Positions 3,473 to 25,682 are shown, counted from the stretch's first letter. The stretch is 64,000 nucleotides of DNA from an uncultured Gammaproteobacteria bacterium (GCA_964582475.1 CAZOQS010000004.1:63489-127488), one strand, 5' to 3'. A program made the numbers and translations. Notes: a model not told the origin generated them from the letters alone.

Positions 3473-3839
3473 AGGAGAATGGGGTTTTAAGGAGCGCTCA
3501 AGAAACAACTCTCACCGCGCCCCGCGGACAGCAACACACTGCGTGCTGATCCCAGGGGTGCGTTGTTGTATTCAGGGGAATGTCTCACCAGTTTTTGAGG
3601 TTTTTATTGAGTACAATAGGCTATACTCCAGCATATGATTGATGGAAGAGCGCGTATAAGTAGCGAGGCGAACTCGTGGGCCGCTCCCTCTTGTAGGAGA
3701 AAGAGAGTAAAAGATATTGAGATAATATTTTAATACACATATTAGTTGTATTCTCTTTTCAGTACAAATAAAAACACCTCTCTTACGAGAAGTGTTTTTG
3801 TTTGTACCAATCTCAGCTTGTATATCGAGCTGAGCTCGA

Positions 3840-7895: not shown

Positions 7896-7918
7896 AAAGC
7901 AAAACATTGTGCGAAAAG

Positions 7919-7992
7919 TCGGGGTGACAGGACTTGAACCTGCGGCCTCCTGCTCCCAAAGCAGGCGCTCTAGCCAACTGAGCTACGCCCCG
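7919..7992 (-). tRNA. tRNA-Pro (anticodon TGG), CCA not encoded
   Basis: The reverse complement reads CGGGGCGTAGCTCAGTTGGCTAGAGCG-CCTGC-TTTGGGA-GCAGG...GCAGGTTCAAGTCCTGT-CACCCCG-A. One C-A mismatch in the acceptor stem. Confidence 0.88.
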
Positions 7993-16650: not shown

Positions 16651-16747
16651 AGGTTGCTCGGTTCTCTAAGCTCTGGCTTAATATGGGCGACTCGAATAGG
16701 AATGTTCGAGAAACGAGGACAAGTTCGCTCGAGAGGAGACGAGGACG

Positions 16748-17635
16748 ATGGCGCTGAACAATCTCGCACAGCGGTTCGTGGTGGCTAGTGTTGCTATCCC
16801 GGCGCTTCTGGGAGCGCTCTACTTCCGACAGGGGATCATCTGGTTCGTCCTCTGTCTGGTCTTCGCCCGTCTGGCGGCGAAAGAGTTCCTGGCGCTGGTC
16901 GCGCCAGACGAACCGGAGTCGACGGGCTACCACCCGCTGTTCTACCTCCTGTATGGAGGGGTGTTCGTCACACTCTTCCTGGCAGTGTCGCGGCACAGCC
17001 TGTTCGGCCTGCACTTCGAGGGGCTGCTCCCGCTGCTCTATGGCGGCCTGATCCTCGCGGTCGCAGTGCTCCTCTCCATCCTGATCTTCCCGCCCCTGCT
17101 CACACAGAAGCGGTTGAAGATCGGTGGCCTGGCGCTCGGGCCCTTCTACCTCGCGGGGCCCTTCGCTCTGCTCGCGCTCATTCGGCTGTACGGTACGTCG
17201 GCCGAGGGAGCGGGGCTCTGCATCTTCACGCTGTCAGTCGCCTGGCTCGGGGACTCGGTCGCCATGCTCTTCGGCAAGACGTTCGGCGGTCCGAAGCTCT
17301 ACCCGACCGTCTCGCCGGGGAAGACCTGGAGCGGCGCCGTGGGCGGGCTCATCGGCTCGGCCTCGGTCGTGCTCTTCGCCAAGCTGCTCTTCCTGCCCAG
17401 CCTCCCGGTCGGGAAGGGGATCGCGCTCGCGCTCTTCGCCGGCGCCTTCGGGCAGCTCGGTGACCTGTGCGAGTCAGTTCTCAAGCGTACGACCGGGGTC
17501 AAGGACTCGGGCAGCTCGCTGCCGGGCCATGGAGGCTTCCTCGACCGCGTCGATGCGCTCTTGTTCGTGACCCTGGTGGTCTTCGGCGCGCTCCAGTCGG
17601 GCTGGCTCGGTTTCTCGTTGCCGTCCACTCGTTAG
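16748..17635 (+). CDS. cdsA: Phosphatidate cytidylyltransferase (CDP-diglyceride synthase), high-GC
   Basis: CdsA signature SVLKRTTGVKDSGSSLPGHGGFLDRVD. Multi-TM protein. 42/60 G+C in row 17341-17400. AGGAG at 16734-16738 upstream of the ATG. Confidence 0.88.
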   Translation: MALNNLAQRFVVASVAIPALLGALYFRQGIIWFVLCLVFARLAAKEFLALVAPDEPESTGYHPLFYLLYGGVFVTLFLAVSRHSLFGLHFEGLLPLLYGGLILAVAVLLSILIFPPLLTQKRLKIGGLALGPFYLAGPFALLALIRLYGTSAEGAGLCIFTLSVAWLGDSVAMLFGKTFGGPKLYPTVSPGKTWSGAVGGLIGSASVVLFAKLLFLPSLPVGKGIALALFAGAFGQLGDLCESVLKRTTGVKDSGSSLPGHGGFLDRVDALLFVTLVVFGALQSGWLGFSLPSTR

Positions 17636-17741
17636 CGCTGATCGACTACCGGAACAATCAACCCACCTCTCCGGCCCTCGGCTGGAACGATGACGCACCT
17701 CTCGCTTCCGTTCCAACGAGGGCCGCGTCATATTCAAATAC

Positions 17742-19314: not shown

Positions 19315-19391
19315 CGGGGTATAGCTCAGTTGGCCAGAGCGCCTGCATGGGGTGCAGGAGGCCGCAGGTTCAAGTCCTGTTACCCCGACCA
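19315..19391 (+). tRNA. tRNA-Pro (anticodon GGG), CCA encoded
   Basis: CGGGGTA-TA-GCTCAGTTGGCCAGAGC-G-CCTGC-ATGGGGT-GCAGG-AGGCC-GCAGGTTCAAGTCCTGT-TACCCCG-A-CCA. Perfect acceptor stem. Confidence 0.9.
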
Positions 19392-20944
19392 TCAAGGAAA
19401 TCTCCTTGCAAGAGGAAGTCGCTGAACGGCTGTAATAGGCTAATGTCAGCGACTTTTTCGTTATCCACGACGAAGTTCGAGAACATCAAACGGATCACTT
19501 GGTCGCGGTATGCTAAATCGTCCGTGTTTTGCAGCGTTTGCCCAATGTTTCCAAACAGTTCGAGAAAGGTCTCATACGTCATCGGCGCGTCCTTGGATTT
19601 GGCGATCAGCTCCTCTGTTTCTTTGATTGTTTTTTCAATGTCGGCTTTGTCCGCCTTCACTTTTTCCATGTCGCCCTTGAAATGCTCGGTGAGCATATCG
19701 TCGTTTTTGAGCATGATACCTTTGACGCGCTCCATGGTTTTCTCGTTTTCCGTATGTGCCCTATGAAGGGATTTGAGACGGCTTTCCAGCTCCTCACGGT
19801 GCTGAATGCTCTCGATGGCGACGGTACGGCAAAATCGGTCGTAGTTCGAGCGTGTAGCGAAGACATGGGTTTCGAGGAAGTCGAGGACGTAACGCATAAC
19901 GACACGGGCGCGCAGGTTCCGTTTTGGCCTCTCACACGTTTTTGTTTCGCAACGGTAGTAGTAGATGCCCGTCGTGCCGTTCGCCTTTTTCGGCTTGGTC
20001 GTGATACCTGATCCCATGGGTCGTTTGCAGTACGAACAAATAACCATGCCTCGTAGGAAGTCTGCTTTCGCGCCCTTTCGCTTTTTCGTCGGCTTCACCA
20101 TTTTGAACGCCGCCCCAATGTCGGAGAGAGCGTTGATTTTGAGAAACGCATCAACGGACACGGCTGGCACGAAGTCGTAGGCTTCGGTGAAATCAACGAT
20201 CGTGCCGCCATGCATAAGTACGCCCGCATAGATGGGATCATGAAGTATGTTGGCGACTTTGTTGATCGTCATGTGATATGGCTTGCGAACTTCTCCCTCG
20301 GTGGGAGCGCGGGTATAGCGAGACTTGTTCAAAAACTCGGCTACTTCTTCCTGCGTCTTTCCTTCGGCGCGAAGCTCAAACGCACGCTTCACCATGACCC
20401 AATACTCCCCATCAGGACGAAGGTGATCGTTTGGGTCTTTGTAGTAGCCATGTTTAGCGATGTGGATGTACTTGCCCTCCTCCAAGGCTCTACGTTGCCC
20501 GCGTTGCACAACTTCGCTCAAATGGTCGCTGTATTGCTTGGAGAGGACGAAACTGATGCCAAGAAGCATTTTGCCCATCGGGGTATCCTCGAAACTAAAC
20601 GTGGCAAAAGAAAGGTTTTTGATGATCTTTTTATCGAGTAAGTCGATGATCTTGCCCGCGTCGGCCATGTTGCGGGCGAGACGGTCAGGGTGCCATGTGA
20701 GAATGGCGTCGTACTTGCCGAGCTTGATGGCTTCGATCATCTTTTTGAACTTGTCGCGTATGTCAGGCTCTTTTGCACTTTCCTGTTCCTCGACCACTGT
20801 GATGTGACTTTCAGGGATACCAAGACGCTTCGCCGCATCAAAACAGTCGAGTTTTTGGTCGGGAATGGAGCGTTCTTGCCTCTCGTCCGAGGTCGTTGAC
20901 TTGCGCACGTACATGACAAAACGGAGCTTGGTGATGTCTATCAT
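19370..20944 (-). CDS. Large serine recombinase (resolvase/invertase N-domain + recombinase domain + zinc ribbon + coiled coil)
   Basis: Catalytic-Ser region FVMYVRKSTTSDERQERSIPDQ, followed by DRLARN. Cys cluster CSYCKRPMG...YYRCETKTC. Start set at the ATG at 20944, which is preceded by GAGGAGG with a 5-nt spacer; the ORF is open up to 21088. The stop lies inside the tRNA-Pro 3' end. Confidence 0.85.
   Translation of the reverse strand: MIDITKLRFVMYVRKSTTSDERQERSIPDQKLDCFDAAKRLGIPESHITVVEEQESAKEPDIRDKFKKMIEAIKLGKYDAILTWHPDRLARNMADAGKIIDLLDKKIIKNLSFATFSFEDTPMGKMLLGISFVLSKQYSDHLSEVVQRGQRRALEEGKYIHIAKHGYYKDPNDHLRPDGEYWVMVKRAFELRAEGKTQEEVAEFLNKSRYTRAPTEGEVRKPYHMTINKVANILHDPIYAGVLMHGGTIVDFTEAYDFVPAVSVDAFLKINALSDIGAAFKMVKPTKKRKGAKADFLRGMVICSYCKRPMGSGITTKPKKANGTTGIYYYRCETKTCERPKRNLRARVVMRYVLDFLETHVFATRSNYDRFCRTVAIESIQHREELESRLKSLHRAHTENEKTMERVKGIMLKNDDMLTEHFKGDMEKVKADKADIEKTIKETEELIAKSKDAPMTYETFLELFGNIGQTLQNTDDLAYRDQVIRLMFSNFVVDNEKVADISLLQPFSDFLLQGDFLDGRGNRT
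19416..19459 (+). terminator. Intrinsic terminator downstream of tRNA-Pro(GGG)
   Basis: Stem AAGTCGCTGA / TCAGCGACTT with a 20-nt loop, followed by TTTT. Lies inside the 3' end of the recombinase reading frame on the other strand. Confidence 0.6.
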
Positions 20945-21110
20945 TTTCGCCTCCTCGGGCTTATGGAAGGCTATGAGGGCTTCGTATAGGTCTTTTGAGG
21001 TGTGCATACGGGGCTCATTGTAGCGGAAAAGGCTGATTTTGTGAGTTGGCGGCTTTTGCTGTAACGTGGCTAATGGGTTGTCCTGCAAAGGTATTATCCA
21101 AAATCTACAT

Positions 21111-21761
21111 ATGAAGTCTTTTTCGAAAATAAACGCACCAGAGATCTATGCGGTTCCGATTCAAGAGAACGGGGAGCCTCTTGTAGACCTTTTGATAGAT
21201 TGTCCCGACATTTTCGTCGATCAAACGCGGCAATACGCACAAGACGTTTCAAAGTCCATTTCATGCGTTCGCAAGCAAGTTGCCGAGCGGTTGAAACAGG
21301 CGGCCGCTCAACTTCCTGCGGGGATTCGTTTCAAGATCGTTGAAGGTCATCGCTCATTAGGGGCGCAACGCCATATCTTCGCCGAAGTGATGGACGACGT
21401 TAGAAAAGACCATCCGAGCTGGAACGAACAAGAGATTTACGATGAAACATCGACTTTTGTTGCTCCACCCGATAACACGCCCCCACATTCAACAGGAGGA
21501 GCCGTTGATCTCACTTTGATGGCAGTGGATGGCACAGAACTCGACATGGGGGCAGATCTCAACGATGGATACTCGGGCATTTGTTATACGTTTTCGGAAT
21601 CAATCTCGGAAGAGGCGAAAAAGAACCGCCAGATCCTCATTCAGGCGATGCAAGGCGCGGGTTTTGCCAACTATCCTGCGGAATGGTGGCACTGGTCTTA
21701 CGGTGATCGCTACTGGGCATTCATGACGGGTGCATCCGTTGCTATTTACGGTTCAATGTGA
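21111..21761 (+). CDS. D-alanyl-D-alanine dipeptidase (VanX/DdpX-like, peptidase M15D)
   Basis: Motifs EGHRSLGAQ, PPHSTGGAVDLTL and AEWWHWSYGD match the VanX zinc/catalytic arrangement. ATG at 21111. Confidence 0.8.
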   Translation: MKSFSKINAPEIYAVPIQENGEPLVDLLIDCPDIFVDQTRQYAQDVSKSISCVRKQVAERLKQAAAQLPAGIRFKIVEGHRSLGAQRHIFAEVMDDVRKDHPSWNEQEIYDETSTFVAPPDNTPPHSTGGAVDLTLMAVDGTELDMGADLNDGYSGICYTFSESISEEAKKNRQILIQAMQGAGFANYPAEWWHWSYGDRYWAFMTGASVAIYGSM

Positions 21762-21787
21762 TAAGGAAGTCGCACAGGAGGTAGGTG

Positions 21788-22348
21788 ATGCAAGGTGTCT
21801 ATCGTCGTCCGTTTCCATTCACTCGGCGTGAGTTTCCGTTCTTCTTCTGGTCGCGCATCGAGCCCAACTCGGTCGCGCATGTGGGGCGTGACAAACACGC
21901 CGTCGACTTCCTCGTTCCCGAGGGGACGCCCGTCTGCGCTCCGCGTGATGGTGTCGTGACCGAGGTCAAGGACGGTTCAGATCGTGGAGGGGCTGATCGA
22001 GCCTTCGAACATGACGCCAACTACATCGTGATCGACCACACGAGCGCGACGTTCAAGGTGATGGGCTACTCGCGGCTCGCGTGGAGCGATGAAGAGCTGG
22101 GAGGAGGCCACAACCCCGTCATCGACGAGGACGAGGGTCAACGCTCGATCATCATCCACCTCGCCAAGGACAGTGCCCGCGTGAAGGTAGGCGACCACGT
22201 TCGAGCGGGTCAGATCATCGCCATGCAAGGGTCTACTGGCTGGACGTACGCGCCACACATCCACTTCGCCGTGTACCAGAACGGCACCAGCGTTCCGATT
22301 CACTTCCGTTCATCCGTGGAAGTGGTCGGGGATCTGCTGATCCAGTAA
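21788..22348 (+). CDS. M23-family metallopeptidase (high-GC)
   Basis: HxxxD motif (HAVDFLVPEGTPVCAPRDG) and HxH motif (APHIHFAVY). AGGAGG at 21776-21781, 6 nt before the ATG. 41/60 G+C in row 21901-21960. Confidence 0.8.
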   Translation: MQGVYRRPFPFTRREFPFFFWSRIEPNSVAHVGRDKHAVDFLVPEGTPVCAPRDGVVTEVKDGSDRGGADRAFEHDANYIVIDHTSATFKVMGYSRLAWSDEELGGGHNPVIDEDEGQRSIIIHLAKDSARVKVGDHVRAGQIIAMQGSTGWTYAPHIHFAVYQNGTSVPIHFRSSVEVVGDLLIQ

Positions 22349-22401
22349 TCAAATACACAGAAGCCCGCGTCACATGACGCCCCGCCTGCTTCTGTGCAAC
22401 T

Positions 22402-22440
22402 CCCCGCAACGCGAACTCGCTTGTGGGGTTCGTCGTTTTT
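22402..22440 (+). terminator. Possible terminator after the M23 gene
   Basis: CCCCGCAA ... TTGTGGGG stem followed by TTCGTCGTTTTT. Confidence 0.4.
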
Positions 22441-22556
22441 ATAAGGCTTATTGTAGCGGATAAAGAAACAAAGCAAGTTGAGGCTTATCAATCACAAGAC
22501 TGGGATAGAACTCGTGGATCGGTAAAGAAACGGAAAACAAAAGGTCAACTTTTTTT

Positions 22557-22961
22557 CTACACCTCGCACGTTCCCTGTACCGCGATGTCAAAATCCGCCA
22601 CGTCTCGCGTGTACTCGAACACAAGCGGTTTTCGTTCCCGTCGTACCTCCTCCAAAACCTTGAAGAGCAGTCCATAGAGCTTGTCAGTCGGTACATCGAA
22701 GATGGAGCGGCTTTCGAGTTCTTTTTCTATGGATTCAAGCCGTCGTGAAAGGATGTGAAGCTCATGTTCTTGGGTCAGGCGGTACTTCTCCCGTAGTGCC
22801 TCGTCGTGAATCGCGCGTAGGTTGCGTATCTGTTCAGCCAATTCTCGGCTCCATAGCATGAGAGTAGGCTTGGAGACGTTGATCTCTTCGCTGATACTCG
22901 AAAAGCTCTTGCCTTGGCTACGCAATTCAACGAACCGATCCTTGCAGGCAGCATCTTTCAT
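22557..22961 (-). CDS. Small helix-turn-helix protein (phage/element regulatory or terminase-small-like)
   Basis: N-terminal HTH RSQGKSFSSISEEINVSKPTLMLWSRE followed by a coiled-coil-like region. Confidence 0.55.
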   Translation of the reverse strand: MKDAACKDRFVELRSQGKSFSSISEEINVSKPTLMLWSRELAEQIRNLRAIHDEALREKYRLTQEHELHILSRRLESIEKELESRSIFDVPTDKLYGLLFKVLEEVRRERKPLVFEYTRDVADFDIAVQGTCEV

Positions 22962-23482
22962 AGGGGTACACGCTCACCGTTCAAGACCTTCTCTCATGGA
23001 GAGGGTTTTGTTTAGTTGCGCGGGTTTTTCTCGCCAAGTTCGATCCGTTCACCGCTTGGAAGACGGACGATCATGGGATCGCTCCCACCCGAAGAAGACT
23101 GGGGCGTTGAGGGCGGAGGCGTTGGCTTGCTCTGCAATGCGCCTGCGAGGTCGCTTTGATTGTCTTTGGTTGGCATAGGTTTGCCCTTATTCTACGCGCT
23201 CATAACGAAATAGCAAAGGCAGTAGCGACGGACTTCCATGCGGTCAAGGCTTGGAGCTTCTCATTCGTTTTGAGATACGTGTCGATGAGGGCGATGATGT
23301 CGTAGGTGAGTTCAAGAGAGGTCTTTGAACCCCGACCAGCGAGAACGCCGCCCATCTAGGGCGGTTTTTCGTTGACAGAGGGGGAGATTTGGAAGAGATT
23401 GAGAGGTCCATCTAAAGGGTGGCCCCGGTGACTAGGTTGGTCATGCGGTCCTACGGATCAGCGGAGAGGAGTTGAGTATCCA

Positions 23483-23947
23483 ATGAAGTACGTCGTCTTC
23501 GTTCGTCACGGGTCCTACAGCGAGAACACGGGGAGACTGAATGGGTGTGGGGTTGAACAGATGCGGCTGCTAGCCGAGAAGCTGAGACTTCTCTCGTCTG
23601 ATAGCGGACGATTCCGCCTGATCTGTTCGATTGCGCCTCGCGCGGTCGATAGCGCTCTCGAGCTCTTTGATGCCCTCAAGCTGGACGGGTTCGAGGCGCA
23701 CGGGCTCCTGTGGTCCGATAATCGGCACCAGCAGAGGGATGATGCGGCGCTCGAACTCATCAGGCACCGCGGTGAGGGGGCGGATTCACTGATCGTGGTA
23801 TCGCACCTTGATTACGTCCGCGATCTCCCGCCTAAGTTCGCCAAGCGCACGCTCGGCCAGACGATCGAGACGATCGAGCTCTCGAAGGGGCAGGCGCGGC
23901 TGATCGACTGTCGTGCCGCTCGCCCGACCGATCTGATCCTTTCCTGA
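23483..23947 (+). CDS. Histidine phosphatase family protein (SixA-like), high-GC
   Basis: RHG motif (VFVRHGSY) and a second His (VVSHLDYV). GGAGAGGAG at 23463-23471. 38/60 G+C in row 23641-23700. Confidence 0.7.
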   Translation: MKYVVFVRHGSYSENTGRLNGCGVEQMRLLAEKLRLLSSDSGRFRLICSIAPRAVDSALELFDALKLDGFEAHGLLWSDNRHQQRDDAALELIRHRGEGADSLIVVSHLDYVRDLPPKFAKRTLGQTIETIELSKGQARLIDCRAARPTDLILS

Positions 23948-24038
23948 AGGATGGGTGTTGCAGTCAACTGAACCGTGAGGCGGGAACTCCCGCCCCAAGT
24001 CCCCACGGGCAACCCTGCGTCCGTGGGGTTTGCTAGTT

Positions 24039-24104
24039 AAGTGGGGTATAATTTTTACGTTATCCCCATGTTTTCTTGTGCTTCTAGTGGGGTATACGTA
24101 TAAT
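24039..24104 (+). promoter_or_regulatory. Tandem candidate promoters upstream of hup
   Basis: Repeated AGTGGGGTATA (24040-24050 and 24086-24096). Perfect TATAAT boxes at 24047-24052 and 24099-24104. Confidence 0.45.
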
Positions 24105-24157
24105 TCCCTTGCATTTACTTATTCTTTTCGTGTTTTTTCGCACATCTCTGTATGAAA

Positions 24158-24430
24158 ATGACAAAATCGCAGCTCATGAAGGAATTGTCGGCCAAGACGG
24201 ATCTTCAGAAGAAGGACGTTGTTGCCTTCATGGAACAGCTCGTCAAAATCGCTTACACACAGGTCAAAAAGAACGGAGAATTTGTTCTTCCAGGTTTTGG
24301 CAAGTTGGTGAAGCTTGATCGCAAGGCACGCATGGGCCGCAACCCAGCTACAGGCGAATCGATCAAGATCCCAGCGAAAAAAGTTGTGAAATTCCGCGTT
24401 GCAAAAGTTGCGAAGGAAGCAATTTTGTAA
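24158..24430 (+). CDS. hup: DNA-binding protein HU/IHF family
   Basis: MTKSQLMKELSAKTDL...GFGKLVKLDRKARMGRNPATGESIKIPAKKVVKFR is the canonical HU fold sequence. An alternative ATG exists at 24152. Confidence 0.93.
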   Translation: MTKSQLMKELSAKTDLQKKDVVAFMEQLVKIAYTQVKKNGEFVLPGFGKLVKLDRKARMGRNPATGESIKIPAKKVVKFRVAKVAKEAIL

Positions 24431-24490
24431 TTAGTTATTTTGCTGAAAAAGGAGATGGGAAACCATCTCCTTTTGTTATATACTGAATAC

Positions 24491-25303
24491 ATGCCCAAGA
24501 AACGCTCTGTCGCTCCTTCTTCATCTGCCGTAACGCCTTCCAAACCCAATCCAAATGTCATCTTGGGTGGGCAGACGTGCGAGATCCAAAATCCGCATCA
24601 ACGCATCCAGCAATGGCTGGCACGCCCGCATGCGCCGACTACTGCCTCAACCTCTATTTTTGAAGGGATGGATGGAAGTATGAGCTGGCGCATTTTCCGC
24701 ATCTTATCCGAATTTGTGGAAGGGTTTGATTTTCTCTCAAAGCAATCTAAGACGGTGACGTTCTTTGGAAGCGCTCGCTGTTCCTTTGCGAGCTACGGTT
24801 ACCAACAAGCAAAAAAATTAGGGTATCTCTTGGGAAAAGAGGGTTTTACTATCATTACGGGAGGAGCGCCGGGGGTGATGGAGGCGGGGAACTGGGGTGC
24901 CTACGAGGCTGGCGCGCATTCCGTGGGACTGAACATTCAGTTACCGCATGAGGAGCGGAAGAACCAATACGTAAAAGAAAGTATTGCATTCCAACATTTC
25001 TTTACACGCAAGGTGATGTTGTCAGCGGCTGCTCAGGCCTACGTGTATTTTCCGGGAGGGTTTGGAACGCTCGATGAATTGTTCGAAATTGTAACCTTGA
25101 TTCAGACCGGAAAGATTGCGAATAGAGTACCTGTGGTGCTTGTTGGAAAAAAGTTTTGGACGCCAATGTTCGATTGGATCCGTAGCGAAATGTGGGATGA
25201 GAACTTGTTTATCGATAAGCACGATATGGACCTGATGTTTCTGGTGGACTCTGCCGAAGAGGCGTACGAAATTATTTTGGCGGTGAAGCACGAGATGGCG
25301 TAA
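24491..25303 (+). CDS. LOG-family (TIGR00730) nucleotide phosphoribohydrolase
   Basis: Motifs GGAPGVMEA and PGGFGTLDELFE. ATG at 24491. Confidence 0.85.
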   Translation: MPKKRSVAPSSSAVTPSKPNPNVILGGQTCEIQNPHQRIQQWLARPHAPTTASTSIFEGMDGSMSWRIFRILSEFVEGFDFLSKQSKTVTFFGSARCSFASYGYQQAKKLGYLLGKEGFTIITGGAPGVMEAGNWGAYEAGAHSVGLNIQLPHEERKNQYVKESIAFQHFFTRKVMLSAAAQAYVYFPGGFGTLDELFEIVTLIQTGKIANRVPVVLVGKKFWTPMFDWIRSEMWDENLFIDKHDMDLMFLVDSAEEAYEIILAVKHEMA

Positions 25304-25325
25304 TAAGAAAACAACTGCATCTGAG

Positions 25326-25367
25326 AATAAAGAAATACCTCCCCAAATGGGGAGGTATTTCTTTATT
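25326..25367. terminator. Bidirectional intrinsic terminator
   Basis: Perfect 19-bp stem AATAAAGAAATACCTCCCC / GGGGAGGTATTTCTTTATT with loop AAAT, between convergent genes. Confidence 0.8.
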
Positions 25368-25379
25368 CCTTTGATCGAT

Positions 25380-25577
25380 TTACGCCTTCTCTTCGTGCTG
25401 GGTACCGACGAACTTCTTGATCGTTCGGAGGGTGCGGGCGGCGACGCGCATACGCTTGCCGTTGATGCGAACAACCTGAAGGTTGACGTTCTGACGACGT
25501 CGGGAAGCGATGTTGGAGTGACTGCGGGAGTTGCCGAAGATGGCACTCTTTCCGCTCAGCTGACAAATTCGGGACAT
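25380..25577 (-). CDS. rpmB: 50S ribosomal protein L28
   Basis: MSRICQLSGKSAIFGNSRSHSNIASRRRQNVNLQ... canonical L28. Internal ATG at 25577. Confidence 0.93.
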   Translation of the reverse strand: MSRICQLSGKSAIFGNSRSHSNIASRRRQNVNLQVVRINGKRMRVAARTLRTIKKFVGTQHEEKA

Positions 25578-25682
25578 AAGAAGTAATGCAATAGACGGCA
25601 AAATAATGGCCGTAGGATAAGGGAAGTGGTCCGATTTGGCAAGCGCTCGTCCACACGGCATCATAGAGAGCATCCTCTCTTT

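Follow-up and report, generated by a model that had tools for sequence, protein, structure and literature searches.

How does the gene of a large serine recombinase (LSR) come to end inside a tRNA gene, and what are the true borders of the DNA segment to which it belongs? These questions are raised by a locus in a 64,000-nucleotide stretch of DNA, here called the window (GCA_964582475.1, CAZOQS010000004.1:63489-127488), in which the reading frame of such a recombinase runs into the 3' end of tRNA-Pro(GGG). The host genome of the locus belongs to the Patescibacteria (Candidate Phyla Radiation, CPR). We consider it highly probable that positions 19392-23338 form an element of ca. 3.95 kb, inserted by the LSR at the 3' end of this tRNA gene, with CGACCA as the core of its attachment (att) sites and with attP lying inside the integrase open reading frame (ORF). 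A preliminary description of the window had already proposed an LSR-driven element at the tRNA-Pro(GGG) 3' end, with which the domains of the protein, its match to an integrase family and the existence of relatives with an empty site all agree; the borders and the inner anatomy of the element turned out to be different.

An insertion that varies among close relatives

The tRNA-Pro(GGG) gene (19315-19391, plus strand), identified with ARAGORN, stays intact after the integration, and its T arm and acceptor end constitute the B arm of attL. Contigs encoding the identical HU protein were compared, and the flanks of the contigs are 77-97% identical to the window. The element is present in L001 and L004-L006, as well as in L091-L097, and in L002, L003, and L007-L010 the order secE, tRNA-Pro, hup is found without the recombinase, the tRNA-Pro(GGG) gene adjoining secE being the same one. 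The homology of the window to the empty-site contigs ends at ca. 19389-19395 and restarts at ca. 24049-24057; in L007 the left flank is 97% identical to that of the window and the element is absent. Samples containing the element are ERZ27249654, ERZ27249658, ERZ27249659, SRR13208906, SRR26425201, and JGI 3300055001. The region between secE/tRNA-Pro and hup is a real insertion, present in some close relatives and absent from others at a defined site, as is characteristic of an integrative mobile element. Such a comparison with related genomes had been suggested in the preliminary description, which named the lack of an empty site in relatives as the observation that would speak against an element; since empty sites exist, this objection falls away.

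A second form of the element, v2, which is the same in four contigs, occupies this site as well. In comparison with the window, v2 (L001) shows 64-75% identity over the DNA-binding half of the LSR (within 19400-21000) and 99-100% identity in the LSR N-terminus together with the cargo gene of an M15 peptidase, and again in 23400-25600, a mosaic suggestive of an exchanged recombinase module or of recombination between elements. Among genomes 93-97% identical, the spacer that separates tRNA-Pro from hup is hypervariable (window 23339-24057; L007:9311-9906; L009:9539-9898), comprising a histidine-phosphatase-like gene in the window, an acidic 126-amino acid (aa) ORF in L007, and a 55-aa ORF in L009; the spacer may be debris of earlier elements at the same site.

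The integrase gene, its attachment sites and the detached tail

The ORF at 19370-21088 (minus strand) carries the Resolvase (PF00239, 7.7e-22), Recombinase (PF07508), and Zn_ribbon_recom (PF13408) domains and matches the PHROG integrase family phrog_95 at 2e-67. Its homologues conserve ca. 21 residues upstream of the ATG chosen in some gene calls, and the start is therefore placed at 21007, so that the integrated, truncated form of the gene (19370-21007, minus strand; Pfam, PHROG, and homologue alignment) codes for 545 aa; the ca. 525 aa given previously correspond to the downstream ATG. The ORF is intact and its catalytic residues are invariant, including the Y-x-R-K-S and D-R-L-x-R-N motifs in two homologue alignments, and so are the four Cys residues of the zinc ribbon. 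An AlphaFold model was obtained for P0112, an unsplit family member encoded by one of the circular molecules described below. The model is confident for the LSR body, shows long helices (395-482) between the zinc-ribbon strands, and matches the full-length SPbeta and phiC31 integrases in Foldseek (1e-22 to 1e-12), as well as the LI integrase, the sequence relation of the family to solved structures being only remote. The catalytic, recombinase, Cys4 zinc-ribbon, and coiled-coil parts reported earlier are thus all found in the Pfam matches, the invariant Cys residues, and the helices of the P0112 model. By its domains, fold, and att geometry the protein is a large serine recombinase.

The stop codon of the LSR gene (19370-19372) lies 22 nt inside the tRNA-Pro(GGG) 3' end, as the ORF and ARAGORN coordinates confirm. 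LSR residues 1-539 are encoded by the element, the tRNA gene contributes at least the four last codons (GNRT) with the stop, and the preceding G-R falls into the core shared by both junctions; the integrase frame thus crosses the attachment junction into host DNA and runs to the first stop, as had been proposed. In an alignment of 24 homologues the last ca. 30 residues of the LSR (L..PFSDF..QGDFLDGRG..T) are conserved down to 42% identity and their spacing to 'GRG', the reverse translation of the tRNA ACCA and acceptor stem, is fixed; several homologues read onward into 'ETRTHDLFVPNEARYQLRYSP', which is reverse-translated tRNA.

The common core CGACCA of attL (19386-19391) is made up of the last two acceptor-stem bases, the discriminator, and CCA. 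That of attR is located at 23333-23338 and is conserved in v2; the blocks of identity shared by the two sites extend over 19383-19391 and 23330-23338, and the crossover dinucleotide should lie inside the CGACCA core. CCCCGACCA occurs three times in the 64-kb window (0.36 copies expected), with one copy at each proposed junction, and both direct copies are conserved in v2. The third copy, inverted and located at the 3' end of an M23 peptidase gene (22323-22331, minus strand), is absent from v2 and probably due to chance. Copies of the element not adjoining a tRNA gene (L017, L025, L051, L057) agree with their relatives next to tRNA genes as far as TGGTCG and differ from there on, and L007 departs from the window directly after CCCCGAC, which places the junction in the last bases of the tRNA, at CGACCA, and not beyond the downstream hairpin as assumed before. 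With the second junction at 23330-23338, the att-defined element spans 19392-23338 and leaves the histidine phosphatase outside; the right edge previously set at ca. 24035, together with the hairpins at 23979-24030, lies beyond it.

The end of the tRNA gene itself differs between occupied and empty sites. The tRNA-Pro(TGG) gene of the window (7918-7992) does not encode CCA (CCCCGAC is followed by TTTTCGC), and the same holds for tRNA-Pro(GGG) in two empty-site relatives, L003 and L007. The occupied gene reads CCCCGACCA, and an encoded CCA may thus be added by integration. Another sequence, CCCGACCGATC (23926-23936, the 3' end of the phosphatase gene), loosely resembles the tRNA end with the start of the P' arm (CCCGACCATC), which may be a coincidence or an old junction.

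The same geometry is found throughout the family. The identity between the two junctions comprises 6-9 bp in 26 delineated relatives, usually TGGTCG alone for tRNA-Pro, and the core hexamer follows the target: TGGTGG for tRNA-Ala and tRNA-Val, TGGTGC for tRNA-Arg, and TGGTAG for tRNA-Glu. Read in the tRNA sense, it consists of two acceptor-stem bases, the discriminator, and CCA. Moreover, the T-loop motif T(C/T)GAAC is found at an offset of 18 from TGG in the tRNA and of 23 in the P arm (24 of the 24 loci scored), and in the window the T-loop-like motif of the P arm, CTTGAAC, is likewise 5 bp further from the core than its counterpart in the tRNA. A motif bound by the zinc-ribbon domain was described by Rutherford et al. 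(PMC3783163) as displaced by 5 bp between attB, where it is nearer to the centre, and attP. The offsets of 18 and 23 match this published LSR attP/attB geometry, clearly so in the B and P arms only. The acceptor end and T arm of the tRNA would serve as the B half-site, with the P half-site bearing CTTGAAC 5 bp further out.

On the side of the tRNA gene, the P' arm (19392-19467, plus strand) comprises two hairpins, at 19393-19408 and 19412-19459, with a T run after them, and its minus strand consists of the conserved codons of the LSR C-terminus. The hairpin at 19416-19459, earlier taken for the host tRNA terminator, thus encodes LSR residues conserved in homologues 36-50% identical. The fold of 19392-19471 has an energy of -31.7 kcal/mol (z = -5.9), and over 65 loci the ca. 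80 nt that follow the tRNA have a median z of -2.9, against -0.28 for a control segment within the LSR gene. The antisense strand of the LSR 3' end being so structured, the element brings a replacement terminator for the tRNA gene it enters; the P' arm would supply both the CCA-proximal bases and the new terminator hairpin. In L002, ca. 70 nt homologous to the LSR 3' end follow tRNA-Pro directly (L002:9830-9900), the recombinase is absent, and both hairpins are preserved via compensatory changes; this remnant is best read as a deletion scar which would have kept the terminator of the element as that of the tRNA. The B' side at the far end of the element contains another hairpin with a T run (23347-23370, plus strand; 7 pairs, of which 6 are G-C), among the strongest terminator-like sites scanned and probably the original tRNA-Pro terminator displaced by the insertion. 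A hairpin with flanking A and T runs also lies immediately outside the P arm in the relative L106.

The other end of the element holds the missing part of the integrase gene. The detached LSR 3' end (23200-23337, minus strand), the first ca. 10 codons of which are the P arm, consists of 45 codons and a stop (GRGSKTSLELTYDIIALIDTYLKTNEKLQALTAWKSVATAFAISL) and is contained in a small ORF, orf51 (51 aa, 23200-23355, minus strand), which had been counted among the small cargo ORFs. The LSR end (GAT GGT CGG GGT) and orf51 (GCT GGT CGG GGT TCA AAG) share one phase, and joined at the core they make a single 584-aa ORF ending with ...QGDFLDGRGSKTSLELTYDIIALIDTYLKTNEKLQALTAWKSVATAFAISL; the circular form would therefore encode a 584-aa protein. 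The orf51 homologue has no start codon in L011-L016, and in L012-L014 and L106 it begins exactly at GGTCGGG(A/G)TTCAAAGACC. The loci from Genome Taxonomy Database (GTDB) genomes were searched upstream of each LSR for six nt repeating the tRNA end and, after them in the LSR phase, an open tail of 35-75 aa with an LLEL-type motif, which gave 34 matches in the LSR phase and 1 and 5 in the control phases. In-phase tails were thus delineated at 26 loci, 23 by this search and three via longer repeats. In six close relatives the tail always has 45 codons, with 189, 83, and 273 substitutions at the first, second, and third codon positions, and the starts called for the detached-tail ORFs are not conserved. 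This coding-type pattern without a conserved start argues that the tail is translated, as a conserved sequence, only as the LSR end in the attP configuration, and that selection acts via the fused, excised form. The conserved 'LEL' of the tail is the T-loop DNA motif read as CTC GAA CTN. A search with the tail alone as a protein query returned small ORFs with fortuitous N-termini only and no unsplit close relative.

The following course of events would explain these features. In the circular form the gene would read across the core into 45 more codons, giving the 584-aa protein, and since attP lies inside the integrase gene, integration would remove its last 45 codons, shifting them to the far end of the element (23200-23337) and leaving an integrated gene that ends in tRNA-encoded residues and codes for 545 aa. 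The predicted junctions are ...GAGAGGTCTTTGAACCCCGACCATCAAGGAAATCTCCTTGC... for the circular attP and ...CAAGTCCTGTTACCCCGACCAGCGAGAACGCCGCCC... for attB. Integration by the LSR through attP x attB recombination is predicted from the insertion polymorphism and from the circular, unsplit relatives, and the window copy would presumably still excise.

Relatives, cargo and other explanations

A scan of GTDB species representatives gave 80 loci with LSR relatives 36-84% identical. Most of the records are labelled as Patescibacteria/CPR (Saccharibacteria, Uhr-, Ames-, Davies-, Magasanik-, Nomura-, Berkel-, Gracili-, Pacei-, Wirth-, Peribacteria, and others) and a minority otherwise; contigs titled 'uncultured Gammaproteobacteria', 'Pseudomonadales' or 'Oceanicoccus', such as L012, L014, L015, L017, and L022, carry the CPR-type recombinase, and their titles may reflect mislabelling or mis-binning. 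At 65 of the 76 loci with an ORF reaching a stop, the LSR ORF overlaps a convergent tRNA 3' end, 15 tRNA species being involved (Pro 43, Leu 6, Asp 4, Val 4, Ala 4, Gly 2, Arg 1, Glu 1). The clade of the window element is found at all three tRNA-Pro isoacceptors in different hosts, and one member of the family (L055) comes from human oral Saccharibacteria. The elements are ca. 3-10 kb long, with no recognisable phage or conjugation genes, and a scan of IMG/VR for LSR relatives found none. Prophage features are accordingly missing from the window element, which is ca. 4 kb long, has no IMG/VR relatives, and matches PHROGs, besides its integrase, by the peptidase domains only.

Unsplit genes are found on circular molecules. 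L102 (4689 nt) and L103 (4678 nt), from two samples, are circular permutations of one molecule of ca. 4.63 kb without a tRNA gene, and their LSR of 594 aa has the tail attached (...TGGDEGTLLELYKAICNN...). L107 (4929 nt), with a 30-nt exact terminal repeat and also without a tRNA gene, encodes an unsplit LSR of 577 aa (...GGRKHTTLELFETATF...). Further unsplit copies occur in L057, L101, and L105. These circular unsplit forms are known only from distant family members of the window element; a close integrated relative of P0112, sought for a matched set of attP, attL, attR, and attB, was not found, the nearest being 59% identical. The cargo of the circles is of a kind usual for exclusion or defence: a zinc-ribbon protein with a Lipoprotein_Ltp domain (L103:345-917) and an AAA_15/AAA_21 ATPase (L107:118-1821). 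L106 is a complete relative of 3.3 kb with the order terminator, core, tail, 62-aa ORF, 135-aa protein, one reverse-strand gene, LSR, and tRNA-Pro(CGG). Some loci have additional tRNA fragments at the ends of the element, namely a disrupted pseudo-tRNA between the LSR gene and an intact tRNA-Pro(TGG) in L011 (6890-7080) and displaced 3' halves of tRNA-Pro just outside the P arm in L015 (ca. 3700-3800) and L016 (ca. 2340-2490), which suggests serial or tandem integrations.

The conserved core of the element would comprise the LSR gene, the tail, a small ORF, and a gene for a helix-turn-helix (HTH)-like protein of 134 aa, to which two peptidase genes are added as cargo. The first of these (21111-21761, plus strand) codes for an M15 (VanX-like) D-Ala-D-Ala dipeptidase (PF01427, 2e-20, with an NCBIfam D-Ala-D-Ala dipeptidase match below the cut-off) and the second (21785-22348, plus strand) for an M23 peptidoglycan metallopeptidase (PF01551, 8e-19). 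The M15 gene is absent from the related elements L011-L016 and L106, and the M23 gene is missing from related elements as well, which makes both of them cargo specific to the lineage of the window; to this extent the cargo listed in the preliminary description stands. The 134-aa partner protein (22557-22961, minus strand) has a weak N-terminal HTH, with only sub-threshold Pfam matches to HTH_Tnp_1 and HTH_23, and is helical in the remaining part. Its homologues, found at 17 loci, are always encoded on the LSR strand, ca. 300-400 nt after the P arm and tail in seven of the eight delineated loci having one and ca. 1.5 kb after it in L024. It is a candidate regulator or recombination directionality factor. 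Between its gene and the tail lies a small conserved ORF of 54 aa (23012-23176, minus strand), with no family match in domain searches; its counterparts are the visibly similar 62-aa ORF of L106 and a 101-aa ORF in v2.

The histidine-phosphatase-like gene (23483-23947, plus strand; weak His_Phos_1 match) belongs to the strain-variable spacer. Its position beyond attR and its absence from related elements appear to rule it out as cargo, as which it had been listed. Just upstream of hup, AGTGGGGTATA occurs twice (24040-24050 and 24086-24096), the second copy overlapping a -10-like TATAAT; element-free relatives have GGTGTGTACTT or GGTGGGGGCTT in the position of the latter. A second indel polymorphism is found elsewhere in the window, between the genes of ribosomal proteins L1 and L11, where a 1.08-kb segment (16658-17734) with a CTP_transf_1 (cdsA-like) gene has a G+C content of 0.65-0.69 against ca. 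0.50 nearby; L001, L004, L006, and L007 have this segment, and L005 and L009 lack it.

Several observations weigh against the anatomy proposed here. L007 and L009, the closest relatives, carry unrelated sequence between tRNA-Pro and hup, and every informative contig with the exact histidine phosphatase protein also carries the element. No empty site retaining the histidine-phosphatase side was found among the contigs checked, so that the B' side had to be deduced. Excision of the window element is shown by no read-level or contig evidence, and neither its predicted attP nor its attB was found when JGI metagenome contigs were scanned for exact matches. Close relatives (72-100% identity) include no unsplit gene, all being integrated. 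A search of the P' and B' arms by eye for a mirror image of the zinc-ribbon-domain motif gave nothing convincing. Finally, AlphaFold gives the tail of P0112, predicted to be helical, no confident placement (predicted local distance difference test, pLDDT, 31-48), and the model is therefore uninformative on the function of the tail.

Some of these observations would fit the anatomy first proposed, with an element that starts immediately to the right of the tRNA terminator hairpin and reaches ca. 24035, the phosphatase included, and with the last ca. 25-30 residues of the LSR as host filler. Homology to the empty-site relatives indeed restarts only at ca. 24050, the phosphatase is always accompanied by the element in informative contigs, and the tRNA of L002, a relative without the LSR, is directly followed by a homologue of the hairpin. 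The supposed filler, however, is conserved, with a fixed spacing to the tRNA end, in homologues 36-50% identical from many CPR lineages, the related elements L011-L016 and L106 end at the tail and P arm and lack the phosphatase, and L002 is better taken as the deletion scar described above; these facts make the larger element quite improbable. An empty site composed of tRNA-Pro, CAGCGAGAAC..., terminator, histidine phosphatase, and hup would conflict with it. Still less can be said for a crossover at the direct repeat TTTTT(A)CGTTATCC (19455-19467 and 24053-24066), which would treat the hairpin as host DNA and place attL within the LSR gene, ca. 95 nt from the stop. The repeat, with copies of 13 and 14 nt that differ by one indel, is found roughly at both edges of the variable region, and could have produced L002, which resembles its recombination product. 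We nevertheless dropped this scenario as hardly credible after the true second junction had been found, since the C-terminal residues are conserved family-wide. CGTTATCC(A/T)C is LSR coding sequence in relatives from other hosts, ACGTTATCCCCATG belongs to the host, being conserved upstream of hup in genomes free of the element, and from a crossover at the repeat one would expect neither the in-phase tail nor the shift of the motif by 5 bp. It is more likely that the repeat served as microhomology for the L002 deletion.

Finally, the segment could be a fixed, immobile remnant in which the LSR gene or its 3' end is kept as a tRNA terminator or for a host function. We find this unlikely, because presence and absence vary among genomes 93-97% identical in their flanks, the LSR keeps an intact ORF and invariant catalytic residues, the tail shows coding-type substitutions without a conserved start, circular unsplit relatives exist, and the clade is found at all three tRNA-Pro isoacceptors in different hosts. 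It would nevertheless agree with the finding of only integrated copies in this clade, with the retention of the terminator part alone in L002, and with the two variants at one site, whose mosaic identity suggests homologous exchange and not re-integration. The att-defined element of ca. 3.95 kb thus remains our preferred explanation. What its split gene is for can be proposed only tentatively: the split might act as a state switch, with the 584-aa integrase made only by the excised circle, a tail-less enzyme made by the integrated copy, and the tail, to which we would ascribe some role, setting directionality, activity or stability. The tail might then be needed for attP x attB integration, the tail-less form being either excision-competent or inert.

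Comparison with known recombination systems

In the full-text literature, the coverage of which is incomplete, no account was found of CPR serine integrases, of tRNA-targeting LSRs, or of an LSR with attP in its own ORF, and the family is apparently a large, undescribed one. Serine integrases are major tools of genome engineering, and structural work on how they recognise their sites and on their directionality is active. The family described here appears to read the tRNA T-loop as a zinc-ribbon-domain motif, obeying the 5-bp attP/attB rule over many tRNA targets, and offers dozens of natural attP/attB pairs for testing recognition rules. Its self-splitting gene is a bacterial serine-recombinase counterpart of the archaeal 'suicidal' integrases and makes gene splitting as a regulatory switch directly testable; if such a switch exists, the directionality of a serine integrase would be controlled partly independently of a separate directionality factor. 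The elements are small, widespread in CPR bacteria, and variable in cargo, with cell-wall hydrolases in the window and an Ltp-like lipoprotein or an AAA ATPase on the circles. They are candidate genetic tools for CPR bacteria, a group with almost none, and a corollary of the switch, if true, would be ready-made integration vectors with tRNA attB sites for these hard-to-manipulate organisms.

Serine integrases typically target protein-coding genes or intergenic sites. The LSR of the window shares with those of phages and of integrative conjugative elements (A118/LI, phiC31, Bxb1, SPbeta) the catalytic and recombinase domains and a Cys4 zinc ribbon with an embedded coiled coil, as well as short att sites built around a core of a few bp and a zinc-ribbon-type motif 5 bp nearer to the centre in attB (PMC3783163). 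What is new with respect to the described LSRs is the tRNA 3' end as the target, the T-loop apparently serving as the recognition motif, the location of attP inside the integrase ORF, and the very small size of the elements with their CPR hosts.

The tRNA target recalls classical tRNA islands with tyrosine integrases, in which the 3' part of a tRNA gene is entered, the tRNA end is restored, and the integrase gene adjoins the tRNA gene. In the islands, however, tens of bp of identity duplicate the tRNA 3' part, whereas here the identity is limited to 6-9 bp and the P arm is merely tRNA-like, with the motif shifted by 5 bp. In mycobacteriophages BPs, Brujita, and Charlie, with their integration-dependent immunity, attP is reportedly located in a coding region too, and the C-termini of the integrated and excised forms are said to differ; there the split gene is reportedly that of the repressor and the integrase a tyrosine recombinase. 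The window element resembles them in having attP in a coding region and a state-dependent C-terminus, but it is the integrase itself that is split and no repressor was identified.

The closest mechanistic analogue is found in the archaeal SSV-type tyrosine integrases, which usually target a tRNA gene. In these 'suicidal' integrases the recombination site lies in the integrase ORF and integration splits the gene into two parts flanking the element (PMC7253208). In the window and in 26 relatives attP likewise lies in the integrase's own ORF and integration partitions the gene, which is unsplit on the circles. Since the protein is a serine recombinase, the likeness is one of mechanism and not of family membership. 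The SSV-type enzymes are tyrosine recombinases of archaea, use long segments of identity, and are destroyed by the split, whereas the present ones are bacterial serine recombinases with a core of 6-9 bp, which lose only the last 45 codons, located beyond the zinc ribbon domain, and for this reason the integrated gene may remain functional.

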